Virus record (IMG/VR): IMGVR_UViG_3300046787_000353
Span: 1 to 64,000 of that record
Source: a virus
Taxonomy: Duplodnaviria > Heunggongvirae > Uroviricota > Caudoviricetes
Strand: one strand, 5' to 3'
Length of the DNA: 64,000 nucleotides
Below, one piece after another: positions 2,719 through 54,245 of the stretch (its first letter is position 1; each line of letters opens with the position of its first letter). The notes beneath the pieces were generated by a model. The model did no database searches and had not been told where the DNA came from. It worked only from the letters and a program-made list of their open reading frames with translations. The position numbers and the translations under genes are program-made.

Positions 2719-2781
2719 TTAATATTCTGCAATATACAAAATATAATGGATAAAACAAAGCGTTAATATGTTAAAGTTATG

Positions 2782-3282
2782 TTAAAATGGAATTTCGTTG
2801 TATTCCCCTTCGATACCCTTTACTAATAATTCTTTGATGAATATAGGGTCTTTTAGATTAGATAATGGAATTGCTGTTTCATTTGGTAGTTCACTTCCGA
2901 ACCATTTGGACCAAACTACTTTGGTATCATTATCGTATCCGATTCTACGTTCGATTGTCAATTTACCATGCGAACCAAGGATATCTTTAATTCTCCAAGT
3001 GTAGTTATCCGATGGGTGTTCTAAGTTCCTACCTATGTAGGTTATTTCGTATTCAAACAATCCCTTTATGAATTTCCCATTTAGCTTTTCAGCATTCTTT
3101 AATGTGAATAACTCCAGCTCCTCGTCTTTTACCTTCGCAGGAGGAGTAACCTTATTCATTTCTTTTATCAGCTCATTCAATGATTCGTATATACCCCCTA
3201 ATTGTGAGGTGCTATTACTCCCACTCTTATAATTGTTACTTAGTAAATTGGCGAGTATATCTTCATAATCTTTCGTTTCCAT
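2782..3282 (-). CDS. hypothetical protein (166 aa)
   Basis: Minus-strand ORF. Confidence 0.5.
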   Translation of the reverse strand: METKDYEDILANLLSNNYKSGSNSTSQLGGIYESLNELIKEMNKVTPPAKVKDEELELFTLKNAEKLNGKFIKGLFEYEITYIGRNLEHPSDNYTWRIKDILGSHGKLTIERRIGYDNDTKVVWSKWFGSELPNETAIPLSNLKDPIFIKELLVKGIEGEYNEIPF

Positions 3283-3292
3283 TCGTTTTGTT

Positions 3293-3532
3293 TTAAAATT
3301 TATCTATTTGTGTTTTCTTTTTATTAAGATGTATTCTCGTTGTGTCTGAAAACATTAATGTATCACCTACTTTTACTTGATTGATGAATACATGCTCTTT
3401 GAGTTCATATATCATTACTTCACGCTTTAGGTCGAATATAACATTCATTTGTAAAAGTATGATTGCAATTAGGAATAACATCCCAACAACCCATACGTTC
3501 TTTACTATCCATTTTACTTTTGGTCTTCTCAT
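3293..3532 (-). CDS. small membrane protein (79 aa, one TM segment)
   Basis: Hydrophobic stretch VVGMLFLIAIILL. Confidence 0.4.
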   Translation of the reverse strand: MRRPKVKWIVKNVWVVGMLFLIAIILLQMNVIFDLKREVMIYELKEHVFINQVKVGDTLMFSDTTRIHLNKKKTQIDKF

Positions 3533-3673
3533 TTAACCGTGTTTAATTATTAATAAAAATATCAACCATCCCCAGCCATCTCTACCATTAGCTGCTAAAT
3601 ATACTATACCGGCTAAGCATACGATATCAAATACTCTATCCATTACATTACTAAATCGTGCTCCATCCATATC

Positions 3674-4102
3674 CTAACTCATTAAATCTTTATCAGTAAT
3701 GTCCTCAACCTTGTCGATTCTCAATACAGAACCTTGTCCATGCATCACCTGAATTACATACGAACCAATGTAGTATGCTCCTCCGGTAAAATCGTTTAAA
3801 TACTTTTCATCATCGCAAGGTTTACAATATTCATGTGCATATTCCAACGCCAACCATAGTAGAGATTCTCTGGGTTCGATTGACATATCATACTCCCTAT
3901 CTCTATACTCATCAGAATAGTATTTATCCATTAACTTTTCAATACAGCCATCCAAATCTCCTTCACATCTTTGTTTGAATTTCTCAATCCAACGTTTTTG
4001 ATGTGCATCTTCTCTTTCCATTTTCAACCCCCATTGACGAATAGATTCTTTACCCTCATCGGTTTCTAAAAAATCTTTCATTTTTTGTAACATATCACTC
4101 AT
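3674..4102 (-). CDS. hypothetical protein (142 aa)
   Basis: Minus-strand ORF. Confidence 0.5.
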   Translation of the reverse strand: MSDMLQKMKDFLETDEGKESIRQWGLKMEREDAHQKRWIEKFKQRCEGDLDGCIEKLMDKYYSDEYRDREYDMSIEPRESLLWLALEYAHEYCKPCDDEKYLNDFTGGAYYIGSYVIQVMHGQGSVLRIDKVEDITDKDLMS

Positions 4103-4105
4103 ATC

Positions 4106-4855
4106 TTAGTGTGTTTTTAACCAGATTTTTACTTTCTGAATTGTTTCTTTAATTTTCGTATTAGTTTTCAGTATCTTCACAACCTCACCAATTGGACCAT
4201 GCTCTACAACGGCATCCAATGTTGCTTTACCTATGTGAGTTAACTCATTTTGAATTCGGTTTGCCTTTCTATCCGTAACTCTCGGCTCAGATTGCGGTGG
4301 TGGTGGGATAAATCTACCCATATCTACTAATTCTTTTAACTTATCTAACTCTATTCTGGCAGTCTTTATTTCATCGGCAAATTGGTTAGTTATCTGCGAT
4401 GAATTATCTATTGCCATTAATCTATTGGTACGAAACGTATCGAATGATGGTAAGGCTGATGATGTAATGTGTCCCATAGTTGGGTGCACCCCAATTTTAC
4501 CATCTATAAATTTTTTATGTAACTCGTGATTAAGTATTTTATCAATACACATTTCAATAGTTCTCAATACTCTTGCCATACCCATCGATTCAGGCGTTAA
4601 TGCGTATGATTGCCTCACACCTGAACCAGTATGCTTCAATCGTATTGTATTGATATCGGACATTTCCATTTCCAACTCAATTTCATCTTGATATTCCAGC
4701 CCCATATACGTTATTTCTGCCGTATATAGTTCAGCGTAGATATCGGTTGATAGCGAATTATTTACCGATGGTGGATATAATCCTTCACCAGTTGTTTTTA
4801 TTACATATCCTTTGTAACCACATCCACTTAATTTATGCCATCCGTTAAGTTTCAT
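4106..4855 (-). CDS. hypothetical protein (249 aa)
   Basis: Minus-strand ORF. Confidence 0.55.
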   Translation of the reverse strand: MKLNGWHKLSGCGYKGYVIKTTGEGLYPPSVNNSLSTDIYAELYTAEITYMGLEYQDEIELEMEMSDINTIRLKHTGSGVRQSYALTPESMGMARVLRTIEMCIDKILNHELHKKFIDGKIGVHPTMGHITSSALPSFDTFRTNRLMAIDNSSQITNQFADEIKTARIELDKLKELVDMGRFIPPPPQSEPRVTDRKANRIQNELTHIGKATLDAVVEHGPIGEVVKILKTNTKIKETIQKVKIWLKTH

Positions 4856-5179
4856 CTAATAGTATATTTTTCTTATTGAATAAAAGTTTCCCTTTATCGG
4901 TGAAAACGATTTTAGTAAATATTCCTCAGCTTCTGCTATTGTTTTGAATTTCATTATCAGTTCCGGAATGACTTTACTACCACCATCGACCAATACTGGT
5001 TCGGATTGTATATCAAATATATCCATTTCCATTCCCATTGAAGTATATGATTGTTGAGTTCTAATTCCATGCTTTGTTCCTATCATGTGCGGATAATAGT
5101 CCCTATCATTTATCCATCGGACTCCCTCATATAGCCATTGATTCTCACTACATTCATATATTACAAAATATCCAGTCAT
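4856..5179 (-). CDS. hypothetical protein (107 aa)
   Basis: Minus-strand ORF abutting the upstream gene. Confidence 0.5.
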   Translation of the reverse strand: MTGYFVIYECSENQWLYEGVRWINDRDYYPHMIGTKHGIRTQQSYTSMGMEMDIFDIQSEPVLVDGGSKVIPELIMKFKTIAEAEEYLLKSFSPIKGNFYSIRKIYY

Positions 5180-5235
5180 TTTTATTATTTATTATTATTC
5201 AAATATACAAAAAATAATCGAATTATACAACTATT

Positions 5236-5448
5236 TTACCAACTATCTGTGTCAGTTAAGTCTAATTCTAACTTAGTTAAGTGATTATATACCTTAATAC
5301 CATCGCCCATTCCGAATGGAGTAACCGACCAAGTCATCAATCCATATTCACCATACAAATCTTTGATTTTGGCTATCCATTCATTATAACGTTTTTGCTG
5401 TGTATCCGTTAGTGATATCGTTATCACTTTGTTTTCTGTTTTCGGCAT
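5236..5448 (-). CDS. hypothetical protein (70 aa)
   Basis: ORF overlapping the 3' end of the cytidylyltransferase gene in another frame. Confidence 0.3.
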   Translation of the reverse strand: MPKTENKVITISLTDTQQKRYNEWIAKIKDLYGEYGLMTWSVTPFGMGDGIKVYNHLTKLELDLTDTDSW

Positions 5449-5851
5449 CTGCTACTCTTTTTCTTAATTCAGTTGTGCTATAATTGTGAGTTCGTTTATT
5501 GAAATAAAAATCCATATCTAAATTACTCCCAGTAAAGATTTTTGTTTCATATTCTTGTCCAAGTATTCTAATATCAATATCATTTGTCTGCAATATCGTT
5601 AGTAGCTCCTCTTCGGTTGTGTATGGTATGATTGCATCCACATACTTAACTGCATCCAATTGAATGAATCGTTCGTAATATGATTGGATTGGTTTATTCT
5701 TTTCAGGTCTGTCCACCGTTGGGTCAACTTGTAACCCACAAATTAAATAATCACATTGCGATTTAGCCTCTTCTAACATTAGAATGTGGCCTGTGTGTAG
5801 TAAATCAAATGTACTACAAGTAAATCCTATAATTTCAGTATTATTCATCAT
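5384..5851 (-). CDS. Cytidylyltransferase-family nucleotidyltransferase (TagD / RfaE domain II / NMNAT-like)
   Basis: N-terminal GFTCSTFDLLHTGH carries the (H/T)xGH motif of the nucleotidylyltransferase superfamily. The rest of the 155-aa protein resembles glycerol-3-phosphate cytidylyltransferase or ADP-heptose synthase domain II. Confidence 0.7.
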   Translation of the reverse strand: MMNNTEIIGFTCSTFDLLHTGHILMLEEAKSQCDYLICGLQVDPTVDRPEKNKPIQSYYERFIQLDAVKYVDAIIPYTTEEELLTILQTNDIDIRILGQEYETKIFTGSNLDMDFYFNKRTHNYSTTELRKRVADAENRKQSDNDITNGYTAKTL

Positions 5852-7133: not shown

Positions 7134-7433
7134 TTAATTTATATTAATATATTCCGAATTCTTATACATTTGTTTTGAAAGTACTTCCCCTTTCCAATTC
7201 TCAATAATCCATTCAGCAGATTTCACATCTTTAAGTGGATATTGGCTCGATTGCCATATTTTGAAAGGTAATGGGAAATAATTCGTTCGTGCCCAAACTC
7301 TTCGTTGTGGCTGATACAACTTAGTTCCATTATCAACCCACGTTCGAATACGATATTGTGGTCTGGCATTGGTTTCTAATACTATCACTCCCAATAGAAT
7401 TAGTATCATTACTCTCATTTTGTTCATATACAA
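7134..7433 (-). CDS. secreted small protein (99 aa, N-terminal signal peptide)
   Basis: N-terminus MYMNKMRVMILILLGVIVLETNA resembles a signal peptide. Confidence 0.45.
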   Translation of the reverse strand: MYMNKMRVMILILLGVIVLETNARPQYRIRTWVDNGTKLYQPQRRVWARTNYFPLPFKIWQSSQYPLKDVKSAEWIIENWKGEVLSKQMYKNSEYININ

Positions 7434-7460
7434 ATATAAGGAAACTTTTCCACATTTCCA

Positions 7461-7492
7461 AACAAAAAAGGGATAACTTTCGTCATCCCTTT
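7461..7492 (-). terminator. rho-independent terminator
   Basis: Hairpin agggat/atccct at 7470-7490, followed on the minus strand by a U-run (plus-strand A-run 7463-7469). Confidence 0.55.
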
Positions 7493-8968: not shown

Positions 8969-10153
8969 TTAAAATTTATTGAAAATAGTTTCTAATGGTT
9001 TGTTATAAAAATTTTCAATAAATATAGTATTATTTTTTTTATTCCAAAAATACTCATAATGTAAATCGTGTAAATCCGTTTTACTCATTGTAAGTATATC
9101 TTTTAATCTACCTTTTATAGTAGCCATTCTTAATCTATCATCTTCTATTGTATCATAGTTGTGATTCCAATTCGGTAAGGCTACATCAAACCCAAACCTT
9201 TCAGTTAAATATTTGATTGTATTTGGCTTCGATACCATTATAAATGGTACATTCATTCGTAATGCTTTACAAGTCTTTTCACTAATGCTACACCAATCCA
9301 ATCGAGTATCCATAGTTGGCTTACAATCATTCCTATGATAGAAATGTGTTTCCGGTACTATCTCAAAGTATGTATTGATGTAATTCATAAAGTTGACATG
9401 CGATGGATAGTTGTGGTATTTCCACTTATCTGATATATCAAAGTCAATACTATTTGGAATACGTTCCAATACTTTAAAGTTTCTGAACTCAACCTCATTA
9501 TGTGGTGGTATGAACTCTCTATATAACTCCGGCTGAAATGATTCATCGGTAGAACTCCAAATGAAATCTTCATCCAGCCACCCATTCACATATAAGTAAT
9601 TCAGCAACTCTACTTTGTGGAATCTAATATGACCCGATAGAAACAATCCTTTAGATATCTTTTGAAACTTATTTGACCACCCATTCAAATCATTAAATTG
9701 ATTTATGAACTTTGGTATATACATTGATGTATGATATGCATGATGTTCAAAGAATAGGATATCATCTGATATAGGTTTCAAATTCTTATCTATGAAATAC
9801 AATTCCTTACTACATTCTTTTCTACAAAAATCATATAGCTCAATATTAATCTCTTGATTATCATAACACGATAGTTCAATGAATACATTTTTACATTCCA
9901 TTTGAAATACCTGCTTCAACTTATCCAAAAATACAGAATCTTCCATATCAATTGTACCGATTGAAAGTACTATTGATGTATTTACATCTACATTTTCAAA
10001 ATTAGTGTAATCAATTCTGAAATTCTTTTCAGAAAACGATGTGAGTAATTCCGTTAATTCATCGTATGGTTTTACATTCTGGTAATACCATTGGAATCCA
10101 CCCAATATTTTATCATCTCGTCTTAGTAACTTAACGAAGCAAACTTTTTTCAT
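8969..10153 (-). CDS. Putative glycosyltransferase, GT10 (alpha-1,3-fucosyltransferase)-like motif; paralog 1 of 4
   Basis: YFEIVPET ... SISEKTCKALRMNVPFIMV resembles the FxxFENS...YxTEK(L/I)xxAL...VPVV signature of GT10 enzymes. It shares this motif block with 10131..11219, 26730..27827 and 27969..28979. Confidence 0.45.
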   Translation of the reverse strand: MKKVCFVKLLRRDDKILGGFQWYYQNVKPYDELTELLTSFSEKNFRIDYTNFENVDVNTSIVLSIGTIDMEDSVFLDKLKQVFQMECKNVFIELSCYDNQEINIELYDFCRKECSKELYFIDKNLKPISDDILFFEHHAYHTSMYIPKFINQFNDLNGWSNKFQKISKGLFLSGHIRFHKVELLNYLYVNGWLDEDFIWSSTDESFQPELYREFIPPHNEVEFRNFKVLERIPNSIDFDISDKWKYHNYPSHVNFMNYINTYFEIVPETHFYHRNDCKPTMDTRLDWCSISEKTCKALRMNVPFIMVSKPNTIKYLTERFGFDVALPNWNHNYDTIEDDRLRMATIKGRLKDILTMSKTDLHDLHYEYFWNKKNNTIFIENFYNKPLETIFNKF

Positions 10154-13731: not shown

Positions 13732-13775
13732 CTGTTTTAAGTTTTAATTGTTATACAATATACGAAAAATAATTG

Positions 13776-14306
13776 TTATTTCAAAATAATTCGTTCGGTT
13801 TTTATAATATTATTATATCGAACTACAACAGTCATAGTATCACCTCGCATCTCCCATTTGGGTGCTATTACGGTATTGATACTACCATCTACTGAATTGT
13901 AGGATGATTTGTTTATAGTAGGAACTAATGCATTTACATTACTTATTAATGGTGGTAACTTAACTACCATAAACTGACCCGTATATTCATTTAGATACGT
14001 TTTTGTTATAGTGGCAATGGTATCACCTTGTCTTAGATTCCAATATAAGTTACTCTCCCATTCCACCTTAGCTCTCGGTGCCGTTGGAACTCTATCATTG
14101 ATTCTAATTGAACCACTAATGGTATGAATGTTTTGAGTTTCTTTTGAATACAATGTAAAATAATAATACCCATTCACATCTTTGGGTAAACGGGCATCTA
14201 TACTCAATTCAACTGATTCTTTTTGTGGGTATATATCTTCGGGTGTGCAACTGAACATTCCGAATGATAATATCAATAGTAGTATGTATTTCATATTATG
14301 CAACAT
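13776..14306 (-). CDS. putative lipoprotein (176 aa)
   Basis: Signal peptide with lipobox-like LSFGMFSC. Confidence 0.5.
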   Translation of the reverse strand: MLHNMKYILLLILSFGMFSCTPEDIYPQKESVELSIDARLPKDVNGYYYFTLYSKETQNIHTISGSIRINDRVPTAPRAKVEWESNLYWNLRQGDTIATITKTYLNEYTGQFMVVKLPPLISNVNALVPTINKSSYNSVDGSINTVIAPKWEMRGDTMTVVVRYNNIIKTERIILK

Positions 14307-15146: not shown

Positions 15147-15178
15147 TAAAGATACAAAATAGTGCTGATATTGCCAAA
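15147..15178 (-). promoter_or_regulatory. Bacteroidetes sigma-A-type promoter, class 1 (-33 TTTGGCAAT ... -7 TATCTTTA)
   Basis: Minus-strand TTTGGCAATATCAGCACTATTTTG-TATCTTTA lies upstream of the 14746..15090 start. It belongs to a repeated motif family. Confidence 0.55.
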
Positions 15179-15213
15179 TATTTGAGTAAATTTTAACAAA
15201 TATTTAACATATA

Positions 15214-17333: not shown

Positions 17334-17615
17334 TTAGTAGAACAATCCGTTCCACACTAACCAAGATGGTTGTTTTTTAATTCCAGCCTTTGGATTTTTA
17401 TTGCCAGATTTATATTGGGATGGCATCTCCATCGTATAACACACATTCCCGCATCTACTAACCGAAACCAACATACTACTATTTGTAGATGAATGATTAT
17501 CGGAAAATACTTTACCAACTGCTGATTTTAATTCGTTTATCTTACTCATATTTTTAGGTTTTAAGGTTAATCTCTCTCTCAATCTTATATTCAAATATAC
17601 AACATTTTGAGCCAA
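17334..17615 (-). CDS. hypothetical protein (93 aa)
   Basis: Minus-strand ORF. Confidence 0.45.
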   Translation of the reverse strand: MAQNVVYLNIRLRERLTLKPKNMSKINELKSAVGKVFSDNHSSTNSSMLVSVSRCGNVCYTMEMPSQYKSGNKNPKAGIKKQPSWLVWNGLFY

Positions 17616-17644
17616 ATGTCAAGGACTTTAACATTTATTTAACA

Positions 17645-18191: not shown

Positions 18192-18349
18192 ATCTCTTAT
18201 CTTTTTTATTATACTACAATATACAACTTTTTGCCGATGCTGCCAAATATTTTAGTAGTTATTTTCAAAAAAAGCATAAGTCATTGATTACCAATAAGTT
18301 ATAAACCTATGATAATCAATGAGTTATGATATTATAAAAAATCTATATA

Positions 18350-21868: not shown

Positions 21869-21900
21869 GCAATATACGAAATTCTATCGATATTGCCAAA
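21869..21900 (-). promoter_or_regulatory. promoter, class 1 (TTTGGCAATATC ... TATATTGC)
   Basis: Minus-strand TTTGGCAATATCGATAGAATTTCG-TATATTGC sits about 40 nt upstream of the ATG at 21827. Confidence 0.5.
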
Positions 21901-21910
21901 TATTTGAGTG

Positions 21911-23203: not shown

Positions 23204-23540
23204 AATAGTATCTGTTTTAAAGTTTAATATGTCTCTTAATTTTATTCTGCAATATACGAATTAATTTCCAATTGCACAAGCTTTTTGTGAATTATTTTTA
23301 TAAAATTTATTCATTTCCTTTTCAGCCTGATTCAATAGTTTTTGTGATTCTTTCTTATTCCCTTTGAATAATAACTCCATCGCTTTGATGGTCAATTGTC
23401 TGTGTTTTGGTAGTTTGTTCATCTCTTATCTTTTATTACTTCGTAAAGATAGTAAATATTGTCCGTATTGCCAAATATTTTAGCAAATTTTAACAAAATT
23501 TTAACAAAAAAGTCGTAAGTAATTGATATAGAAAGAGTTA

Positions 23541-25871: not shown

Positions 25872-25979
25872 AGCTCGGAAATTTATTTGTTGTTATTAAT
25901 TATTTATTCTGCAATATACGAAATATAATCGGAAAAGTCAAGTCTTTTTTCAATTATTTTGTTAAAAGTTATTAACAAT

Positions 25980-26589: not shown

Positions 26590-26621
26590 TAAATATACGA
26601 AATAGTGCCCATATTGCCAAA
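26590..26621 (-). promoter_or_regulatory. promoter, class 1 (TTTGGCAATATGGGCACTATTTCG-TATATTTA)
   Basis: -33 TTTG and -7 TAnnTTTa with a 20-nt spacer, upstream of the 26336..26575 start. Confidence 0.55.
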
Positions 26622-26693
26622 TATTTTAGCAAGTTTTAGCAAATTTTAACATATATTTAACATATATTTTTTAATGTAATATGTAGATATTAG

Positions 26694-32190: not shown

Positions 32191-32649
32191 TTAGATTTGA
32201 GTTGTTGCGTTATGAACATCCAATTCATCTTGCAACTGCTCAATTTTTACATTTAGAATATCCACTCTTTTTTGGATATCTACAATTGATAATTCTACCT
32301 CTTTTACTGAAACAACACTTCCATATCGGGAGTCTTGCTTTCCTTCATCCGTTGGAACTTTCTTTAATTCCTTTACCAAACCTTTCAATTCAGCCAATGC
32401 GAAGATTTTATCATACACCGGTTGGTTTGCTCTATGCAATTCGGCTTTCAATTGAACCAACTCATTTGTCAATTCGGTAACCTTATCCAATGTTTCTGCC
32501 ATTGAATATCTACGAGGATTTCCTTCTTCTATTGAATTATACTTTTTCAAAATCTCATATTGAGCTTTTAAATCTGCAACCAATTTGTTTTTTGCCTTTA
32601 AGGCCTGTTTAACGTTCATATATTTAAGTTTTATCGTTTTGTTATACAA
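32191..32649 (-). CDS. coiled-coil protein (152 aa)
   Basis: Minus-strand ORF. Confidence 0.5.
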   Translation of the reverse strand: MYNKTIKLKYMNVKQALKAKNKLVADLKAQYEILKKYNSIEEGNPRRYSMAETLDKVTELTNELVQLKAELHRANQPVYDKIFALAELKGLVKELKKVPTDEGKQDSRYGSVVSVKEVELSIVDIQKRVDILNVKIEQLQDELDVHNATTQI

Positions 32650-32685
32650 ATATACAATTAATATTTCAATTTTCCAAATTTATTT

Positions 32686-36129: not shown

Positions 36130-36165
36130 AATTTATCTTTTTAATTATATTCAAATATACGAAAT

Positions 36166-36603
36166 TTATACGGGATTTCCTAATCTATCGGTGGGTTTTT
36201 TATACATTGTTACAACCATTCGTAAATCATCATAAACCTGCTTCAACCCAGCTCTATCATCCAATAGTGCTGAAAAGAATGGTTTACGGGATTCCCAACC
36301 CAAATCGATACCATCCGTATTGATACCATCGCAAGGGATACCATTATCCTTCAAATACTTTTCAACAAATTCCAAATCCTTTTGGGCTGTCCAACAAATC
36401 AACTTACAATTCATCTCCTTCAAATCTCGCAGTAATTCAACTACATAATCATAGGTTGCCCCAGTTTGATGGTAATCATATACCGTACCATCGAAATCAT
36501 ATCCAATGGTAAGTGAACCATATTTTCTATACTCATCCATCAATCTTCGTAAAGATTTGCCGGTTTCTAAATATTCATCAGTACGTGTCATATTAAAATA
36601 CAT
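36166..36603 (-). CDS. small HAD-superfamily hydrolase-like protein
   Basis: DFDGTVYD (HAD motif I). Confidence 0.45.
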   Translation of the reverse strand: MYFNMTRTDEYLETGKSLRRLMDEYRKYGSLTIGYDFDGTVYDYHQTGATYDYVVELLRDLKEMNCKLICWTAQKDLEFVEKYLKDNGIPCDGINTDGIDLGWESRKPFFSALLDDRAGLKQVYDDLRMVVTMYKKPTDRLGNPV

Positions 36604-37456: not shown

Positions 37457-37527
37457 TATCTTATAACTTTTAATTTATTAATATACTCAAATATACGAAA
37501 TATAAGTGAGATAGCCAAATATTTTAA

Positions 37528-39681: not shown

Positions 39682-39713
39682 TAAAGATACAAAATTAGAT
39701 TGATATTGCCAAA
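39682..39713 (-). promoter_or_regulatory. promoter, class 1
   Basis: Minus-strand TTTGGCAATATCAATCTAATTTTG-TATCTTTA upstream of the ATG at 39657. Confidence 0.55.
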
Positions 39714-39732
39714 TATTTTAACATTTATTTAA

Positions 39733-40989: not shown

Positions 40990-41181
40990 TTATCTGTCAG
41001 CTAATCTTTTGAAAACTGCTGCGATTTCTGGTTTTTCTAATTTCTTTTTTAAAGATTCCCATTTATCAGCCAAAAATTGGTTGTATTCAGCTTCACTTTT
41101 AAACCCCATTTTTTTCCAATCCATTTTCATAACTCTCATTGTTTTATTCTGCAATATACAACATTTTGAATCAAATGTCAA
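40990..41181 (-). CDS. hypothetical protein (63 aa)
   Basis: Minus-strand ORF. Confidence 0.35.
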   Translation of the reverse strand: MTFDSKCCILQNKTMRVMKMDWKKMGFKSEAEYNQFLADKWESLKKKLEKPEIAAVFKRLADR

Positions 41182-41202
41182 GTAAAATATGTTAAAGTTT
41201 TG

Positions 41203-42016: not shown

Positions 42017-42113
42017 AACTCTCTTATTTTTTATTACATAGTAAATATACGAAATTCAAATGAGATTGCCAAATAAAACACAAGTTATTTTTGAAAAAAT
42101 GATAGTAATATTG

Positions 42114-44382: not shown

Positions 44383-44420
44383 CAAATATACGAAATATAT
44401 TTTACATTTCCTAATATTTT
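44383..44420 (-). promoter_or_regulatory. promoter, class 2 (TTAGGAAATGTAAAATATATTTCG-TATATTTG); a 49-nt exact repeat of 48393..48441
   Basis: Exact -7 TAnnTTTG, with TTAG in place of the -33 TTTG. Lies upstream of 44422..44886. Confidence 0.5.
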
Positions 44421-45349: not shown

Positions 45350-45420
45350 AGTTAAGTGTTGGATTCGAACCAACGTATAAGGGTTTGCAGTCCTTCGCCT
45401 AACCACTCGGCCAACCTAAC
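45350..45420 (-). tRNA. tRNA-Cys (GCA)
   Basis: Acceptor GTTAGGT/ACTTAAC, anticodon loop CTGCAAA, T-arm GTTGG-TTCGAAT-CCAAC. Confidence 0.7.
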
Positions 45421-45488
45421 ATTTAGTCTATTGTTATCTGAATATTGGTAGTATTACTACTATTATTGGATAATAATTAAACTTATTG

Positions 45489-45560
45489 TATCTCCGGAGA
45501 GAATCGAACTCCCATTTACCGGTTCGTAGCCGATTGTTCTATCCGTTAAACTACGGAGAT
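45489..45560 (-). tRNA. tRNA-Arg (ACG)
   Basis: Perfect acceptor ATCTCCG/CGGAGAT, anticodon loop CTACGAA. Confidence 0.8.
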
Positions 45561-45563
45561 ATC

Positions 45564-45830
45564 CTATCTATACTTTCGTATCATTTCAAACACCTTGCCA
45601 ATATCAGTTAATTTCATAATTTGGTCATTTCTGATTGGTAAGAATGCGATGGTGAATCCGTGGTTACCTTGAAAGAAATCTTCTCTCTTTATCCTATTCC
45701 CATTTACTTTTTCAAGGTATATCCAAGGATAGTTTCCAGCTAATTCCACTTCAATACCAATTTTTCTCAATCTCGGAACTAACCGATTTATTACATTATC
45801 TTCCATTGTGTCTTTCTGTTGTGTTTCCAC
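45564..45830 (-). CDS. hypothetical protein (88 aa)
   Basis: Minus-strand ORF abutting the 5' end of tRNA-Arg(ACG). Confidence 0.45.
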   Translation of the reverse strand: METQQKDTMEDNVINRLVPRLRKIGIEVELAGNYPWIYLEKVNGNRIKREDFFQGNHGFTIAFLPIRNDQIMKLTDIGKVFEMIRKYR

Positions 45831-45985
45831 GTTTTGTAACTTCTATACTTTGCCGAAGAATGTCCTTTTTTAAAGTTCAATCCTTCATCCCAATACGGAG
45901 GATACTCCATATCTAGCCAAATTAATCTGTAATGTTTGGAACAAGTTGCTTTGTTCAATCTCTGTCTGTTAGTTTTTACACTCAT
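45791..45985 (-). CDS. hypothetical basic protein (64 aa); possibly the N-terminal part of a frameshifted or split gene with 45564..45830
   Basis: ORF overlapping the downstream ORF by 40 nt in another frame. Confidence 0.3.
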   Translation of the reverse strand: MSVKTNRQRLNKATCSKHYRLIWLDMEYPPYWDEGLNFKKGHSSAKYRSYKTWKHNRKTQWKIM

Positions 45986-46052
45986 TTTTGCTCAATTTTA
46001 GGTTAATAAACCTAATGAGCATCGAATTTCTTTTTCATAATTTTACATTTAG

Positions 46053-46121
46053 CACGGATTGAAGTAATCGAAACCTCTCCTATGGATTTGGAGTCCATTT
46101 GGCTACCTTAGCCTAACCCGT
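46053..46121 (-). tRNA. tRNA-Trp (CCA)
   Basis: Acceptor ACGGGTT/AATCCGT, anticodon arm ATGGA-CTCCAAA-TCCAT, T-loop TTCGATT. Short D-loop. Confidence 0.6.
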
Positions 46122-46181
46122 ATTTATGTTTCATAGTTTATATGTGAGTTTAAACCTTACTACGTTACTATGAAACATCAG

Positions 46182-46255
46182 TTGGAATAGTGGGACTCGA
46201 ACCTACAACCCCCGCCGTATCAGGGCGGTGCGCTAACCAATTGCGCCATATTCCA
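46182..46255 (-). tRNA. tRNA-Ile (GAT)
   Basis: Acceptor TGGAATA/TATTCCA, anticodon arm CCGCC-CTGATAC-GGCGG. Confidence 0.8.
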
Positions 46256-46261
46256 ATATTG

Positions 46262-46337
46262 TCGGGTGAGCAGGATTCGAACCTGCGTGCTCTCGCGTCC
46301 AAGGCGAGCGAGATAAACCTGACTCCTCTACCACCCG
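46262..46337 (-). tRNA. tRNA-Pro (TGG)
   Basis: Anticodon arm CTCGC-CTTGGAC-GCGAG, T-arm GCAGG-TTCGAAT-CCTGC. Confidence 0.75.
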
Positions 46338-46391
46338 TTGGTGGATGGATTATTTTTTTAAAGTAGAATTCGCCAACCTCAAAACTACTAT

Positions 46392-46465
46392 GTGACCCCT
46401 TTGGGACTCGAACCCAAGACTCCCTCATTAAAAGTGAGGTGCTCTAACCAGCTGAGCTAAGAGGT
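46392..46465 (-). tRNA. tRNA-Lys (TTT)
   Basis: Acceptor GACCTCT/AGGGGTC, anticodon loop CTTTTAA. Confidence 0.8.
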
Positions 46466-46471
46466 CATTAT

Positions 46472-46544
46472 GTGGAGGTGAGTGGAATCGAACCACTTCC
46501 TTTCGCTCTTCAGGCGAACGCTTCTACCAAGTTAGCTTCACCTC
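46472..46544 (-). tRNA. tRNA-Phe (GAA)
   Basis: Acceptor GGAGGTG/CACCTCC, anticodon loop CTGAAGA. Confidence 0.8.
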
Positions 46545-46552
46545 CAATTTTA

Positions 46553-46629
46553 GGAGCAGAGATAGGATTCGAACCTATAACCTAATCCGGCCACATTACC
46601 GGTTGCACGTCCAATTGTGCTTCAACGCT
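46553..46629 (-). tRNA. atypical tRNA-like gene. It has a good D-arm and T-arm, but the acceptor pairs poorly and the anticodon stem CCGG/CCGG carries an 8-nt loop TAATGTGG. Identity undetermined.
   Basis: D-arm GCAC-AATTGGAC-GTGC, T-arm ATAGG-TTCGAAT-CCTAT. Confidence 0.35.
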
Positions 46630-46635
46630 CATGTT

Positions 46636-46720
46636 GTGGGAGCAGAAGGATTCGAACCTACTACCTATGCCGGTTACCAGATTTACAGTCTGGCGCCTAA
46701 CCAATTCGTGCGTTACTCCC
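46636..46720 (-). tRNA. tRNA-Tyr (GTA), type II
   Basis: Acceptor GGGAGTA/TGCTCCC, anticodon arm CCAGA-CTGTAAA-TCTGG, long variable arm. Confidence 0.8.
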
Positions 46721-46788
46721 AATTTCCAATTTTGTTATCACCATTTCCCCTCTAAACGAGCGGCGTGTTCCGGATTGGTAACCGTTAG

Positions 46789-46861
46789 TAGGAGATATAG
46801 GATTCGAACCTATGGCCCCCGCCATGTAAGGGCGGTGCTCTTACCGCTGAGCTAATCTCCT
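46789..46861 (-). tRNA. tRNA-Val (TAC)
   Basis: Acceptor AGGAGAT/ATCTCCT, anticodon arm CCGCC-CTTACAT-GGCGG. Confidence 0.8.
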
Positions 46862-46896
46862 AATTTAATTGCCAGTATTTCAATGAACTACATTCT

Positions 46897-46968
46897 GCGG
46901 GGAAAGAGAATTTCGAAATCTCGACCTACGGATTAACAGTCCGCCGCTCTGCCTCTGAGCTATATCCC
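46897..46968 (-). tRNA. tRNA-Asn (GTT)
   Basis: Acceptor GGGGATA/TTTCCCC (one mismatch), anticodon loop CTGTTAA, T-loop TTCGAAA. Confidence 0.65.
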
Positions 46969-46969
46969 C

Positions 46970-47010
46970 AAAACAAAAAACCCCTAACCGATTTGTATTC
47001 AGTTAGGGGT
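46970..47010 (-). terminator. rho-independent terminator upstream (on the minus strand) of the main tRNA array
   Basis: cccctaac/gttagggg 8-bp stem followed by UUUUUUUGUUUU on the minus strand. Confidence 0.65.
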
Positions 47011-47232
47011 TCTTAAATATTCTATTATTTAATACATTTACATCATATCTCCTGCTATAATGTCCCCTAACGTAGTATCTTGCTTGTCCAAATTACTAAA
47101 CACACAAATCCCTGCCCATGTTCTTTCTAACATCGGTAGATAATTGGCTGTATGTATTGTTAAGGTTTTCATTGCTAATATATATGTAAAAATTTATTAA
47201 TCGTTTGTTTTTGTTAAAATAATTTAATTTTT

Positions 47233-47304
47233 GAGCGAAACCAAGGAATCGAACCCCAACTTGCAACCTGGACGGCTGCCGTGCTACCACTACACTAATC
47301 TCGC
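47233..47304 (-). tRNA. tRNA, nominal anticodon TCC (Gly-like), with G instead of U at position 33 and GU-rich T-stem; atypical
   Basis: Acceptor GCGAGAT/GTTTCGC, D-arm GTGT-AGTGGTA-GCAC, anticodon arm GCAGC-CGTCCAG-GTTGC, T-loop TTCGATT. Confidence 0.5.
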
Positions 47305-48397
47305 GTTTTGAGCGGTGCGAAGGTTTTGCTCCCCCTCTACCTATCTGGAATGATAGATGTGCTACTATTACACCAATACCGCTTATATAAGGATGAGAAT
47401 ACTCCTTTTTACGAACCAACTTTAGAAAGATTATTGTTTCCTTTCATTTCCACTCCCTTTTGAGAAGTATCAATCCAATGTGGGTAATTATAGATTTACC
47501 AATCTTTGAGTTTCAAACTACTCTCTTCCTACTCCTTTTCTTCAACCCTGCCGAGCTGATTCACACTTGCGATGTTAGAAACCTTTCAAAAGAATCACAG
47601 ACCTCTTGCGGAGGTATCGTGGCAGGGAACAACTCCCTACTATGTACACACCTTTCATCTGAAACTGGCAAACACTTATGCTTTATGTTTATCTTATAGA
47701 TTTTTCATCAAATTGAAATTATAAAGTTTTGTGGTCGTAGATGGGTTCAGGTAGCGGTTTGCCTCTAGCTCCGTTATCTTTTGAACAACAGAATACTAAA
47801 CTACCCGATGTGTTATCTCTAACACCATATTTCAAGTCAACTTCACTACCCACTCTTTGGTGAGATGTAGGTAAGGATAATAACAACACCACTTGTTCTT
47901 TATCATACCTTTCGGTTTTAAGTCAACTCTTATACTGAATCACGCAATGATAAGGAGAGATTAAGTCCTTACTTCTTGCAATAATTCTATGGATTATTCT
48001 TTTTGGTGTTCCCACCTCAACTGAACTATCTACTTAGCCCAGTCATCTCCCCACTTTCTTTACAGTGTCACCCTCAATACTAAAGGGGAAATGATATTCC
48101 ACTTGCCTACTCAAGTTCATAACCTTACAGGGTTACAAACCGCAGGATAGTTAACCAACTACCCCACTTTATCCTACTTTCGTAGTTTATTTCACGACCA
48201 TAGGCGGCCGTTGTTACACTATGTAGAACGAATCTACTATGTGTAATCTTTTCAATAATTTAAAGAACGTTTTGTTTCACAAATATACGAAAACTTTTTC
48301 AAACTTCCAAATATTTTTTAAACTTTTTTTATAAATCTAACTACCCGAGTATCTTTCATCACCTATAAGGGTTTACATCATCTTTACTTTTGTTTTA

Positions 48398-48436
48398 CAA
48401 ATATACGAAATATATTTTACATTTCCTAATATTTTT
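48398..48436 (-). promoter_or_regulatory. promoter, class 2; the middle of three tandem promoter-like repeats (about 48280, 48398, 48513) that face the ORF-free 47305..48260 region
   Basis: caaatatacgaaa ... tttacatttcctaatattttt units. Minus-strand -7 TATATTTG. Confidence 0.5.
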
Positions 48437-48571
48437 TAAACTTTTTTTTGTTGAACATTTTCGGCTATGTTTACTTACACCATCTATACTTCCTACTTCT
48501 GAATCAACTTTGTAAATATACGAAAACATTTTTACATTTCCTAATATTTTTACAAATATTTTTAATCTTTG

Positions 48572-48644
48572 TTGCGGGAGAGGGATTCGAACCCCCGACC
48601 TTATGGTTATGAGCCACACGAGCTACCACTGCTCTATCCCGCTA
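48572..48644 (-). tRNA. tRNA-Met (CAT), second copy, with unpaired A1:A72
   Basis: Anticodon arm TGTGG-CTCATAA-CCATA, T-arm GGGGG-TTCGAAT-CCCTC, D-arm GAGC-AGTGGTA-GCTC. Confidence 0.7.
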
Positions 48645-48690: not shown

Positions 48691-48725
48691 CAAATATACG
48701 GAAAAAATATTAAATTTACAAATAT
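48691..48725 (-). promoter_or_regulatory. promoter upstream of tRNA-Met(CAT) 48572..48644
   Basis: Minus-strand TTTGTAAATTTAATATTTTTTCCG-TATATTTG with a 20-nt spacer. Confidence 0.5.
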
Positions 48726-48888
48726 TTTTTAAAATAATTTTAAGGTATCCGGCTTTATAGTTTCGTTTCACTCTTATTGAAACTAATATTTAGAGAGTCA
48801 CGTAGTCGGTTTTATTACTACTGGCTTCAACCTTTCAATTATTATAATACAAATATACAAAATAAATTCGATATATCCTAGTCTTTTT

Positions 48889-51223: not shown

Positions 51224-51629
51224 TGGTGGAGGTGGAGGGATTCGCACCCTCGTCCAGAATACGGCCTAATAAACCTCATTCACAAGCTTATTTAGTTTTT
51301 CTTAACTAACAAAATAAATAGTTTCTAATTCCCCGTTGCTACTATTAAACTTAGATGGTTCTATTGTTAAGGATAATTACCAAAAACACTTCCTATTTCT
51401 TTTCGGATAGAAATCACACCTGGTTTCACATTCTTTTTTACCTCACGATGTGTGCGAGGAAGGATTAGGCTGCTACAGCGTAATCAGCACCTACGAAAGA
51501 CATAGCATCTTCGAAGGTCATTGTAGATAATTCTACTGCGTTTATTGTTCGATAGGTATTTAAGGATTTCCATCTAACCCTGCTTGCAATTATACTAAAT
51601 CATCGCTCCTGTCAAATCTAGTCACCCCC
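51224..51629 (-). ncRNA. ssrA: tmRNA (ssrA-like transfer-messenger RNA), about 406 nt, CCA encoded
   Basis: Minus-strand 5' end GGGGGTGACTAGATTTGACAGGAGCG aligns with E. coli GGGGCUGAUUCUGGAUUCGACGGG. An internal frame reads ...GCT GAT TAC GCT GTA GCA GCC TAA, i.e. ...ADYAVAA-stop (compare the ...ENYALAA tag). The 3' end GGACGAGGG-TGCGAAT-CCCTC-CACCTCC-A-CCA aligns with E. coli GGACGCGGG-UUCAACU-CCCGC-CAGCUCC-A-CCA. The 5' GGGGGTG pairs with the 3' CACCTCC. The region has no ORF. Confidence 0.8.
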
Positions 51630-52304: not shown

Positions 52305-52389
52305 CTTTGTTGTTTTAGTTATTCTTATCTCTTATTACTTAGTAAATATACGAAAAAAGTTTGGAATTGCCAAACTTTTACACTCTTTT

Positions 52390-52605: not shown

Positions 52606-52623
52606 AATTGTAGGATTTGAGGA

Positions 52624-53202
52624 TTAAATGAATTGTAATGCTTTTTGAATATCGGTGTCTTTGCATTTGTAAGATTTACATTTTGCAATCGCTTGTTCCA
52701 ATGTTATCTTACCCCACACATATTTACCTTCTTGCATATCGATTAACATTCTCTTTACATCTGGCCAAGAAGCGAAAGGAGCTTTAGGTTGAAAATGAAC
52801 ATATTTGGAATTGAAATCCAATGTAGTCCCCTTATCAGTTTTACCACTCTCACCATATTCGTAGATATCTTCCATACCATTGTAACGACCTCCTTGCATC
52901 ATATTAGCGAAAGAGTTTAAATCTGTATAGATTGGAGAATCGTATGATATCTCATCGCCATTAGGAAAACAAGCATACAAGTCAGAAGAAGAACCACCGG
53001 AGAAAGTTTGTGATTTACCCCACACTAACAAATCAGGATATTTAGCCTTTACATATTGTTTGAACAACAAAGGAACTTCTTTTCTTCCAATACTGATTGA
53101 TGGAGTTGCCAAAGGTTCACCCCAATAAGAAGTAGTTCTTAAACATTCGTTTGGTAATTCAAAATTAACACCCAACCAAGTAAATTTCATTTTAGATTTC
53201 AT
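52624..53202 (-). CDS. hypothetical protein (192 aa)
   Basis: Minus-strand ORF. Confidence 0.5.
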   Translation of the reverse strand: MKSKMKFTWLGVNFELPNECLRTTSYWGEPLATPSISIGRKEVPLLFKQYVKAKYPDLLVWGKSQTFSGGSSSDLYACFPNGDEISYDSPIYTDLNSFANMMQGGRYNGMEDIYEYGESGKTDKGTTLDFNSKYVHFQPKAPFASWPDVKRMLIDMQEGKYVWGKITLEQAIAKCKSYKCKDTDIQKALQFI

Positions 53203-53278
53203 AATTTTAAGTTTTAAGTTTTAACGTTTTATTCTGCAATATACAACATTTTGAGTTAAATGTCAAGGTTTTTTTCAA

Positions 53279-53737
53279 TTATTTTTTGAAATTTTTTAAG
53301 TTTTTTATAATAGCATCCACCCTAAGTTTTGTTTCTAAATTTCCGTATCCAGTATAACTCTTTACAAAACAAAAGGTAGTAATATTACCACCTCTCACAA
53401 TACAATATATCTCATTACCATTGGATTCACCATTATCATCTGTTAATGATACTACTAATTGTTTCCCATAAGATTCTGATTTAGATACCTCACTATCAAA
53501 TTTGGTAATGGATAGTGGAAATTGAGTAACTTTAATAGCATAATCCTTATTAGTTGGAAAATTGGTTTTTTCTATATCAGCTACTATTCCTTTAATCTGA
53601 TTTTTAATCAAATCATTTAGTTTAATAACACCAACTTTTGTATAATTTCCGGTGGTGGTTTCGTATGATACCGATAACTCCGATTGAGTTAGAATTCGTT
53701 GGTCTAGTCTTTCTGTAAAGTGTTTCATCTCTCTCAT
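53279..53737 (-). CDS. hypothetical protein (152 aa)
   Basis: Minus-strand ORF with a class-1 promoter immediately upstream. Confidence 0.5.
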   Translation of the reverse strand: MREMKHFTERLDQRILTQSELSVSYETTTGNYTKVGVIKLNDLIKNQIKGIVADIEKTNFPTNKDYAIKVTQFPLSITKFDSEVSKSESYGKQLVVSLTDDNGESNGNEIYCIVRGGNITTFCFVKSYTGYGNLETKLRVDAIIKNLKNFKK

Positions 53738-53750
53738 TTTTATTACATAG

Positions 53751-53782
53751 TAAAGATACGGAATAGTGCCGATATTGCCAAA
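53751..53782 (-). promoter_or_regulatory. promoter, class 1 (TTTGGCAATATCGGCACTATTCCG-TATCTTTA), about 14 nt upstream of the ATG
   Basis: Matches the -33 TTTG / -7 TAnnTTTG architecture. No Shine-Dalgarno sequence, as expected in Bacteroidetes. Confidence 0.55.
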
Positions 53783-53804
53783 TATTTTAACATATATTTA
53801 ACAA

Positions 53805-54245
53805 TTATTTTAGGTAAGATGGACCATATACAGCCCATTGAGTAGTTCCATCGATGATGTTACCTCTACTATGTTTTGCCGGAGATTTCCATGTGGCTGG
53901 TTTCAATAAATCACCTTTTTTGATAGGTGAACCTTTTAAATCACCATCTACTCTACTGATGAACCCCCAACAAGACGTTCCATCCCATAGACGAATGTAT
54001 TTATTACCTATTTCAACACCTAAATCCGTTCTACCTACCATAGAACTCATATTTTTATAGTGTTCTTTACGTGCAGCGTTTACTTTCTCAATAAAGTTAG
54101 CTACGATTGGGTTAGATTTTAAGTAATCTAATGCCTTTTGGTCTGTGTTTCTCATATTCTTATCATTTATTACATAGTAAAGATACGAAATTCCATTCAG
54201 ACTGCCAAACTTTTTATGGATTATTTTAGCAAAAAAATAACCCAT
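53805..54245 (-). CDS. hypothetical protein (146 aa)
   Basis: Minus-strand ORF. Confidence 0.5.
   Translation of the reverse strand: MGYFFAKIIHKKFGSLNGISYLYYVINDKNMRNTDQKALDYLKSNPIVANFIEKVNAARKEHYKNMSSMVGRTDLGVEIGNKYIRLWDGTSCWGFISRVDGDLKGSPIKKGDLLKPATWKSPAKHSRGNIIDGTTQWAVYGPSYLK

Follow-up and report, generated by a model that had tools for sequence, protein, structure and literature searches.

We report that 28 repeated sites in a 64,000-nt window (positions 1 to 64,000 of IMG/VR virus record IMGVR_UViG_3300046787_000353; Caudoviricetes) share one bipartite, promoter-like architecture, and that they probably act as strong promoters for the host RNA polymerase carrying its primary sigma factor, most likely of the Bacteroidota type (sigma-ABfr). 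A first-pass annotation of the same window had proposed two classes of repeated promoters of this type; its observation was confirmed, and its interpretation was partly supported in that the sites behave as promoters and are likely of Bacteroidota type while the class scheme was incomplete. The motif, its statistics, placement, conservation and sub-structure are shown here, and we infer that the host polymerase transcribes the sites, which host this is and whether sub-types of the sites differ in timing or strength.

Unsupervised motif discovery, a scan of spacings and a matrix built from relatives only, three independent approaches with no information from the window in common, converged on the same 28 sites, which we name by their upper coordinate (e.g. 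21904 for 21869..21904). A Gibbs sampler, run unseeded and on the non-coding gaps only, converged on AAtAtTTGGcaATaTc...ATTTcGTATATTt, recovering from intergenic sequence the bipartite motif that had been described. When TTG-Nx-TAT[AC]TT was scanned across spacings, the counts peaked at x=20 only, with 24 minus-strand and 1 plus-strand matches (expectation under a first-order Markov model, 1.6), and the other spacings gave 1-7 matches. A matrix iterated on the window scored 28 minus-strand sites at >=22 bits and none between 8 and 22 bits, and on the plus strand nothing reached >=10 bits. The strongest control for the reality of the 28 sites was a matrix built from 102 sites of distant relatives, from which the window and its two closest relatives were excluded: this matrix recovered the identical 28 sites with a minimum of 15.3 bits and nothing else at >=6 bits on the gene strand, with <0.3 matches expected at >=10 bits. 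Because the spacing peak, the unseeded sampler and the relatives-only matrix all recover the sites, we conclude that the repeated promoter-like motifs are real. The earlier estimate of more than 25 sites was correct, and all 13 positions listed at the time (15147, 21869, 23440, 26590, 39682, 42030, 52330, 53751, 54170, 44383, 48280, 48398 and 48513) belong to the 28.

The two classes proposed earlier could also be retrieved as exact patterns. TTTGGCAAT-N(12-22)-TANNTTTR, the pattern of class 1, matched seven times, always on the minus strand, versus 0.01 matches expected; the plus-strand string given for this class fits 8 of the 11 TTTGGCA-type sites but leaves the other three undescribed. The class 2 core TTAGGAAATGTAAAA is present in exactly 3 copies, at 44400, 48415 and 48530, and a fourth variant, TTTGGAAGTTTGAAAA, lies at 48280-48315. 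An identity of 49 nt reported between two class 2 sites turned out to be an exact repeat of 50 nt (44373-44422 and 48388-48437), the original ranges being one base out of register.

All 28 sites are on the gene (minus) strand and within non-coding gaps. At 22 of them, 14-59 nt separate the end of the -10-like hexamer from the first ATG of an open reading frame (ORF) of >=40 aa, a short distance as had been suggested but over a wider range than the 14-40 nt originally given, and the remaining six sites are upstream of RNA genes. No similarity was detectable among the proteins encoded downstream of the promoters, and the repeats are, therefore, not by-products of gene duplication. Coding-strand and intergenic location, a fixed short distance to the start, a bipartite architecture and conservation at orthologous positions are together the behaviour of promoters, as the first-pass annotation had held.

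In the Bacteroidota numbering, in which the T of TA is -12, the consensus of the 28 sites consists of an A-rich stretch followed by aTTTGG(C/A)A (-36..-30), TTT(C/T)G and TAT(A/C)TT(T/G)N (-12..-5). The TTG-to-TA distance is 20 nt in every site; the TTTG-to-TA spacing of Bacteroidota promoters is ~19-21 nt. T-12, A-11, T-10, T-8 and T-7 are present in 28/28 sites, position -9 is A or C, and no site has G at -10 or -9. Position -6 is T in 20 sites and G in the remaining 8, and position -5 is more variable (G 11, A 9, C 6, T 2). Upstream of the hexamer, G-13 is found in 26/28 sites and preceded by C or T at -14, and T occupies -17, -16 and -15 in 25, 23 and 25 sites, respectively. TTTG is found at -36..-33 in 15/28 sites, TTG in 21/28 and G-32 in 21/28; TTGACA occurs in 3 sites and TTGACT in one further site, and none of the 28 carries TATAAT.

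Sorted by -7 element and leader, the sites fall into three types that are interleaved along the window rather than clustered. The alpha type (8 sites; TATMTTTACTATGTAATAAAAA) is laid out as AATATTTGGCAAT, a partly conserved spacer, GTAT(C/A)TTTA and the leader ACTATGTAATAAAAA(ATGAGAGA). The beta type (8 sites; TATATTGCAGAATAAA) has the layout GTATATTG(C/T)AGAATAAA, does not match TAnnTTTG and often occurs with CTTGACA; its -33/-35 elements comprise four of the CTTGAC(A/T) or CTTGTGC type, two TTTGGCA and two weak ones. The gamma type (12 sites; TATATTTG) has the layout GTATATTTG, and six of its members lie in the region of the tRNA genes and the GOLLD RNA, four of these six being the earlier class 2. 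The sorting shows that class 1, although made of real repeats, mixes two -7/leader types, alpha and beta. Class 2 is also real but is a subset of the broader TATATTTG type, which in addition precedes protein genes (32682, 36187, 37523 and the orthologue of 32682 in the related locus L001, which reads TTGGAAATGTAAAATA...TATATTTGTAAAACAAAAC). Thus, both classes exist, but three -7/leader types are seen and the CTTGAC(A/T) -35 type had been missed. Nor is TAnnTTTG the shared -7 element that had been described: the full motif is matched in 11/28 sites only, 9 sites read TAnnTTTA, and the 8 sites with TATATTG(C/T) miss two of the six positions that are near-invariant in the host.

As a side observation, perfect TATATTTG elements are more frequent on the gene strand (19) than on the opposite strand (3), and four of them lack a -33 element (minus strand, first base at 60570, 58057, 56154 and 32012) and lie 35-65 nt before ORF starts. 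Three of these four are in 54-64 kb, where the 28-site family is absent, and such elements may be weak or -7-only (late?) promoters.

The architecture is shared with relatives of the phage: TTG-N19-GTAT[AC]TT is strand-biased in ~30 related IMG/VR loci. In a logo of the relatives' sites that was anchored on the -10 region alone, an unanchored A-T-T-T-G-G emerges at -37..-32 (T 0.72 at -36, 0.90 at -35 and 0.95 at -34; G 0.83 at -33 and 0.75 at -32), together with an A-rich stretch at -44..-39, A-29 (0.68), T-26 (0.73), T-6 (0.62) and G-5 (0.39). A family promoter precedes the CobS-like gene in 11/21 relatives' stretches, the start codon being poorly anchored in the remaining ones. Family promoters also occupy the matching position before the CobT-like gene in several relatives, and the beta -7 type is kept there in most relatives. 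Compared with L001, the promoter elements are kept and the spacers drift. Separately, we noted that the leader of the CobS-like gene can fold into a hairpin in several relatives (L002, ~9903-9960; L005, ~9900-9960; L014, L003 and L004, upstream of the cobS-like gene); its arms (GAGGGAGATAGTTCCCC, GAGAGAGTGATGTAACTCTC, GAGGGAACGGTTCTC) differ between phages yet stay complementary, suggesting that it may be a conserved 5'-UTR structure, and it is absent from the leader in the window.

To place these sites among known promoters, we compared them with those of Flavobacterium johnsoniae. Its promoters (n=241) have the consensus TAHHTTTG, in which T-12, A-11, T-8, T-7, T-6 and G-5 hardly vary and G is excluded from -10/-9, AT-rich motifs centred near -18 and -28, and a -33 element that is weak in the logo (PMC6847099); in Bacteroidota promoters the -33 TTTG is needed for full activity without being essential (PMC2483708). 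The 28 sites fit this -33/-7 geometry, as the annotation had proposed, with TTTG at -36..-33 in more than half of them, T-12, A-11, T-8 and T-7 in all, G at -10/-9 in none and TATAAT in none.

The start codons provide an independent pointer in the same direction. F. johnsoniae mRNAs lack Shine-Dalgarno sequences and are enriched in A at -14..-11, -6 and -3 (PMC6847099), and TAAAA is the proposed ribosome-binding consensus of Flavobacterium (PMC2483708). A scan for Shine-Dalgarno sequences in 105 upstream regions of the window found GGAG in 2, GAGG in 1 and AGGA in 5 (GGAG background, 5%), and the start-codon context has A at 0.62-0.72 at -13..-10, 0.56 at -6 and 0.62 at -3, with G <=0.10 across -15..-5. 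These A-rich, Shine-Dalgarno-free start contexts match the F. johnsoniae pattern and point to a Bacteroidota host, in agreement with the host suggested in the annotation; tandem CTTAAAA heptads, which immediately precede start codons in up to 4 copies and number 12 on the gene strand versus 3 expected, often occur in the leaders and fit the TAAAA consensus. As soft evidence on the host, 10 of 14 GTDB assemblies with a CobS-like homologue are Bacteroidota. Across 84 loci, promoter density correlated weakly with the lack of Shine-Dalgarno sequences (Spearman -0.20, p 0.075), and we draw no support from this correlation.

Several observations weigh against this assignment. The full TAHHTTTG is present in 11/28 sites only, and T-6 and G-5, both near-invariant in F. 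johnsoniae, are missing from the eight beta sites (TATATTGC/T); several of these sites carry CTTGACA-N17-TATATT, resembling a canonical sigma-70 promoter, and TTGnnn-N17-TATnTT is the canonical -35/-10 geometry too. The start sites and the activity of all 28 sites are predictions. The phage collection holds no cultured relative of known host, and the window covers 64 kb of a genome of probably >200 kb, so that a phage sigma factor or polymerase may lie beyond it. Moreover, the comparison with cultured Flavobacteriia phages that the annotation had looked to turned out negative: neither the spacing peak nor this repeated family is present in 50 kb of Cellulophaga phage phi38:1 or in 40 kb of pT24, a Tenacibaculum phage, from its replication/structural region, a result that says little because both phages are unrelated to this one and pT24 was partly covered. 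Because TATAAT is absent, T-8 is invariant, a T usually precedes TTG, -6 is mostly T, G is excluded from -10/-9 and the regions near -18 and -28 are T/A-rich, we favour the Bacteroidota type over the canonical one.

Our working hypothesis is a single host-read promoter with five parts. These are an A-rich stretch at -44..-39, in some sites holding ATGTTAAA boxes phased 11 nt; a -33 element aTTTGG(C/A)A; a T-rich stretch at -17..-15; (C/T)G at -14/-13; and a -7 element TAT(A/C)TT(T/G)N. Sigma-ABfr starts transcription 4-5 nt past the -7 element. In the phage the start would be expected a few bases past this element, giving leaders of ~7-50 nt that would carry A-rich or TAAAA-type ribosome-loading sequences in place of Shine-Dalgarno sequences, and six gamma copies would drive the tRNA array and the GOLLD RNA. 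The sub-types would be variants of this one promoter that spread as cassettes and possibly differ in strength.

The beta sites invite a different explanation, which we regard as unlikely, in which two polymerase specificities operate: TTTGG/TAT(A/C)TTT(G/A) would be read by unmodified host sigma-A and CTTGAC(A/T)/TATATTG(C/T)AG by a phage sigma factor or a phage-modified polymerase, constituting a second, e.g. middle, temporal class. Across 194 sites of the window and its relatives, TTGAC pairs with the TTG extension and TTGG with TTT (chi-square p 5e-6), and the pairing persists after collapse at >=75% identity into 126 clusters (Fisher p 0.011, odds ratio 5.8); C precedes TTGAC in 17/20 sites and T precedes TTGG in 110/130. 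The conservation of the beta -7 type before the CobT-like gene and the two near-invariant host positions that beta misses point the same way. In addition, the ORF at 31577-31966 (minus strand, 129 aa) has a weak, sub-threshold match to an ADP-ribosyltransferase exoenzyme (PF03496, 19.4 bits versus a cut-off of 23.4, E 7e-4), and if this were a true ADP-ribosyltransferase, it could modify the host RNA polymerase by analogy with T4 Alt/Mod, hinting at polymerase modification. However, searches for sigma factor, RNA polymerase and MotA-like or other activator Pfam domains found none among the ~94 ORFs of the window, most of the genome being outside it. The elements also mix freely: 21904 and 18251 combine TTTGGCA with beta, 17627 combines CTTGACA with gamma, and the -33 type switches at an orthologous promoter, that of the CobT-like gene, which has CTTGACT in the window and TTAGGCT in L001. 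Finally, all types share one invariant core and spacing, a single matrix captures them all, and they are interleaved along the window. We likewise doubt the broader form of this idea, that the jumbo-phage family uses two coupled architectures, T-TTGG...TAT(A/C)TTT(G/A) and C-TTGAC(A/T)...TATATTG(C/T)AG. The primary sigma factor of Bacteroidota is not known to use a near-canonical sigma-70 consensus; if true, two architectures would mean that the phage brings or creates a second polymerase specificity, by a sigma factor or by modification, to time its genes, i.e. a T4-like early/middle switch in a Bacteroidota phage. A likeness of aaaGCTTGAC to the T4 MotA box was set aside because no MotA-like domain was found among the ORFs of the window.

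Slightly less likely still is that the host is a low-GC bacterium outside Bacteroidota and that the sites are ordinary sigma-70-type promoters (TTGACA-N17-TATAAT family) on which the TTTG flavour is a decoration of the phage. The TTGnnn-N17-TATnTT geometry is canonical, a generic sigma-70 scanner ranks 53266 and 17622 (TTGACA-17-TATATT, 11/12) top in their regions, and G-5 is present in just 11/28 sites. On the other side, sigma-70 prefers A at -8, where every site has T, and TATAAT is never found; an extra T precedes TTG in 15/28 window sites and, at a frequency of 0.72, in the relatives. No third of the window has an excess of generic sigma-70 matches (74, 101 and 88 versus 85, 110 and 104 expected), showing that the generic scanner cannot detect this promoter family. 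The Shine-Dalgarno-free, A-rich start contexts resemble those of F. johnsoniae, and the genomes with CobS-like homologues are mostly Bacteroidota assemblies.

That the repeats are primarily dispersed recombination or regulatory cassettes (operators or mobile intergenic repeats) that resemble promoters is very improbable: conservation does extend over 50-80 nt, beyond the sigma contacts (the 50-nt exact repeat, the alpha spacer ATATCGGCACTATT and the leader ACTATGTAATAAAAAATGAGAGA), and copies are located at the edges of segments that vary between relatives (26625-25946 in L001; 53.3-54.2 kb in L002), but strand, position and spacing are exactly promoter-like, information is uneven across the repeat and peaks at -33 and -7, distant relatives keep these elements only while the rest has diverged, and >100 genes would otherwise be without a recognisable promoter.

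The coordinates of the sites and of two associated elements follow.

Table 1. Candidate promoters and associated elements in the window. Both matrices, window-iterated and relatives-only; pattern, exact class 1 pattern; core, class 2 core.
Feature	Positions	Strand	Recovered by
Alpha, AAAGTTTGGCAG...GTATCTTTA with ACTATGTAATAAA leader; terminator hairpin 54237-54263 24 nt upstream	54178..54213	-	Window matrix 32.5 bits, relatives-only matrix 30.1 bits
Alpha; leader ACTATGTAATAAAAATGAGAGAG runs into 152-aa ORF	53751..53786	-	Pattern, both matrices
Beta, canonical-looking CTTGACA-N17-TATATT(GC); CTTAAAA heptads in leader	53236..53271	-	Both matrices
Alpha (TATATTTACTAAGTAATAA); followed by ORFs of 126 and 94 aa, then tmRNA gene	52343..52378	-	Pattern, both matrices
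Gamma, CTAGGAT...TATATTTG; head of RNA-gene region	48850..48885	-	Both matrices
Gamma, TTTGTAA...TATATTTG; hexamer end 51 nt before tRNA-Met (48571-48643)	48691..48726	-	Both matrices
Class 2, ATATTAGGAAATGTAAAA...TATATTTA; first of three tandem copies ~115 nt apart	48513..48548	-	Core, both matrices
Class 2, within 50-nt exact repeat 48388-48437	48398..48433	-	Core, both matrices
Class 2 variant, TTTGGAAGTTTGAAAA...TATATTTG; ~470 nt upstream of conserved GOLLD 3' domain	48280..48315	-	Both matrices
Class 2, within 50-nt repeat 44373-44422; hexamer end 61 nt before tRNA-Glu	44383..44418	-	Core, both matrices
Alpha, first after tRNA array; before 202-aa ORF	42042..42077	-	Pattern, both matrices
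Beta, CTTGACA-N17-TATATT(GC)	41151..41186	-	Both matrices
Alpha; before CCA-adding-enzyme-like gene (241 aa)	39682..39717	-	Pattern, both matrices
Gamma, TTTGGCTAT...TATATTTG; 9 nt after terminator hairpin 37532-37560; before PRPP-synthetase-like gene	37488..37523	-	Both matrices
Gamma, TTAGGAAATCCC...TATATTTG; before nicotinamide phosphoribosyltransferase gene	36152..36187	-	Both matrices
Gamma, TTTGGAAAATTG...TATATTTG; orthologous site in L001 resembles class 2	32647..32682	-	Both matrices
Alpha; two ATGTTAAA boxes upstream; terminator hairpin 26702-26724 77 nt upstream	26590..26625	-	Pattern, both matrices
Beta, CTTGACT-N17-TATATTGC; before CobT-like gene (761 aa)	25911..25946	-	Both matrices
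Alpha variant, TTTGGCAAT...CTATCTTTACGAAGTAATAAAA; before small 53-aa ORF	23444..23479	-	Pattern, both matrices
Beta, CTTGTGC...TATATTGC; before CobS-like AAA protein gene (409 aa)	23249..23284	-	Both matrices
Beta -7 with TTTGGCAAT -33; 23 nt after terminator hairpin 21927-21951	21869..21904	-	Both matrices
Beta -7 (TATATTGT) with TTTGGCAGC -33 element	18216..18251	-	Both matrices
CTTGACA -35 with gamma -7 (TATATTTG); two ATGTTAAA boxes upstream, 11 nt apart	17592..17627	-	Both matrices
Alpha, diverged leader ending in CTTAAAA heptads	15147..15182	-	Pattern, both matrices
Beta -7 (TATATTGT), weak -33 (TTTTGAA)	13755..13790	-	Both matrices
Gamma, TTTGGAAATGTGGAAAA...TTATATTTG; immediately after terminator hairpin 7467-7492	7431..7466	-	Both matrices
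Gamma, GTTGTAT...TATATTTG	5200..5235	-	Both matrices
Beta (TATATTGCAGAATA), weak -33; inverted ATGTTAAA boxes upstream	2729..2764	-	Both matrices
ATGTTAAA boxes	17627-17645, 26645-26663, 15203-15210, 39717-39724, 53786-53793; inverted 2768-2786, 41189-41196		
CTTAAAA heptads	13734-13747, 15092-15112, 17299-17326, 21829-21842, 23214-23227, 53204-53224	-	

Several flanking features accompany the sites. A predicted terminator hairpin lies within 80 nt upstream of six of them (54213, 37523, 26625, 23479, 21904 and 7466), and the other 22 are without one. The ATGTTAAA boxes, found in both orientations and frequently paired at a distance of exactly 11 nt, immediately precede the -33 element; ~10 of their 17 occurrences adjoin promoters, and they may represent an UP-like element or the binding site of some factor. 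Repeats akin to them (TGTTAAAAT) were noted in a large intergenic region of Tenacibaculum phage pT24 (locus L096, ~18925-18960), a match at chance level (E 0.3). TGAGAG is present 14-19 nt past the hexamer in 7/28 sites. We considered ATGAGAGA as a ribosome-binding site or a conserved N-terminus and rejected both: the orthologue of the 152-aa gene in the related locus L002 is without the cassette and starts at the second ATG, and other copies read ATA in place of ATG, which together assign ATGAGAGA to the leader of the alpha cassette.

On our own reading, the sub-families would represent promoter-plus-leader cassettes of ~60-80 nt that have spread before unrelated genes. In L001, other sequence takes the place of the segment between promoters 26625 and 25946, and the 26625 cassette is bordered on a single side by a 2.2-kb indel (26740-28978). 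In L002, the orthologue of the 15.2-kb gene has the 53.3-54.2 kb genes as neighbours, and the alpha cassette before the 152-aa protein gene is simply absent.

Six of the 28 sites lie upstream of RNA genes. ARAGORN called 25 tRNA genes on the minus strand, 24 of them in one array (42113-48643) and one at 31471-31557, and Rfam gave one additional tRNA-like match (43631-43703). Promoters serving the array are found at two positions only, 48.3-48.9 kb and 44418, the latter upstream of tRNA-Glu and the tRNAs after it. A 16-bp hairpin with a T-run lies mid-array (46976-47014), with no recognisable promoter after it. The GOLLD RNA was matched over the full model at 47390-47808 (minus strand; RF02032, 292 bits versus a gathering score of 150); GOLLD RNAs assemble into 14-mer nanocages of unknown function, and this one occurs in a phage with signals pointing to a Bacteroidota host. 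Three tandem class 2 promoters (48548, 48433 and 48315) follow tRNA-Met and precede GOLLD, and the site at 48280..48315 is the likely GOLLD promoter, from which the transcript would probably start near 48276 and run for a predicted ~887 nt to the end of the Rfam match. This predicted length and the upstream tRNA-Met fit the reported GOLLD architecture, i.e. a variable 5' half of ~420 nt and a conserved 3' half, >800 nt in total, with one known example downstream of Met-tRNA (PMC12286853). The tmRNA (51224-51629, minus strand; RF00023, 80 bits) has an encoded CCA end and was not called by ARAGORN; its predicted long tag would be AVELSTMTFEDAMSFVGADYAVAA, with the resume codon at 51539. No family promoter lies directly upstream of the tmRNA, the nearest being 52343-52378.

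The long ORFs of the window are all on the minus strand (GC ~33%), the RNA genes comprise the 25 tRNAs, one GOLLD RNA and one tmRNA, and the gene functions include NAD salvage, RNA repair and CobS/CobT-like proteins. Genes related to NAD salvage and nucleotides (34591-36129, 36593-37456, 5384-5851 and 34122-34589, minus strand) encode a nicotinamide phosphoribosyltransferase and PRPP-synthetase-like, cytidylyltransferase-like (NMNAT-like) and nucleoside 2-deoxyribosyltransferase-like proteins. Beside the tRNA array are genes for RNA repair and tRNA maintenance (18756-19325, 29889-30293, 37564-38706, 38932-39657 and 39733-40116, minus strand), comprising a HAD domain of 'Swiss Army Knife' RNA repair proteins, a cyclic-phosphate-processing receiver domain, an RNA ligase, a CCA-adding enzyme head domain and a P-loop kinase. 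Two stretches, 7.5-13.7 kb and 54.3-64 kb, the latter with genes for lectin/cohesin-domain and tail-fibre-like proteins, are free of the 28 sites. Many relatives of the CobS-like protein are present in IMG/VR, including on contigs of 209-251 kb. Megablast of 20 kb of the window against the phage collection gave no match; protein searches with nicotinamide phosphoribosyltransferase (NAMPT), the CobS-like and CobT-like proteins and the RNA ligase found no close cultured relative (identities <=55%), and an exact-protein look-up found no record identical to the CobS-like product. The exact alpha-cassette pattern had 0 matches in IMG/VR, so that the IMG/VR collection searched does not include the window itself, and blastn of the alpha cassette against phages gave chance-level matches only (E >=0.3). 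Because of this gene content, the lack of a close deposited relative and the 209-251 kb relatives, we place the window in an uncultivated large phage, as an accessory and non-structural region of 'early type' whose genes run in one direction.

The analysis provides a set of 28 promoter sites, with >100 more in relatives, for an uncultivated large-phage family that probably infects Bacteroidota. To our knowledge, phage transcription signals in this phylum are poorly described; the consensus supports a call of the host phylum from sequence alone and allows operon maps of these phages, a phage GOLLD RNA and a 25-tRNA array gain a likely promoter upstream, for the former at its expected 5' end, and the compact, probably strong promoter-plus-leader cassettes are candidates for expression tools in Flavobacterium and Bacteroides. 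Large lytic phages are expected to carry repeated early promoters of host type, and the finding is, in this modest sense, ordinary phage biology that is useful without overturning current understanding.

Three known systems can be set beside the sites. In T4-type phages, PeSL (promoter-early stem-loop) cassettes combine a conserved early promoter with a terminator stem-loop fused to its upstream side, and they mark boundaries of insertions, deletions and replacements between close relatives (PMC2839356, PMC4122927). The likeness lies in the many near-identical, probably strong promoters for host sigma, set among small ORFs, tRNAs and accessory genes where the genome is plastic, in the 6/28 sites directly after a terminator hairpin, and in the cases, too few for statistics, that border segments in which relatives differ. 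The sites differ from PeSL in consensus and in belonging to an unrelated phage lineage, 22/28 copies have no adjacent stem-loop, and a role in recombination is suggested here by two junctions. With canonical sigma-70 promoters (TTGACA-N17-TATAAT), the sites share the 17-nt spacing and, in three to four cases, a perfect TTGACA, but TATAAT is lacking, T replaces A at -8 throughout and the preferred -35 element is TTGGCA/TTGGAA preceded by T. From sigma-ABfr promoters the phage sites differ by a -33 element (aTTTGGCA) that is far stronger and longer than the weak one of the host, by the added conserved (C/T)G at -14/-13, and by having G-5 in 11/28 and T-6 in 20/28 sites, with TTGC/TTGT for TTTG in beta. 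Nevertheless, they share with these promoters a TTTG ending at -33, a TA from -12, invariant T-12/A-11/T-8/T-7 and the exclusion of G from -10/-9, and the T-rich -17..-15 and A/T-rich region near -28 in the window match the AT-rich -18/-28 motifs, with short leaders free of Shine-Dalgarno sequences in both.

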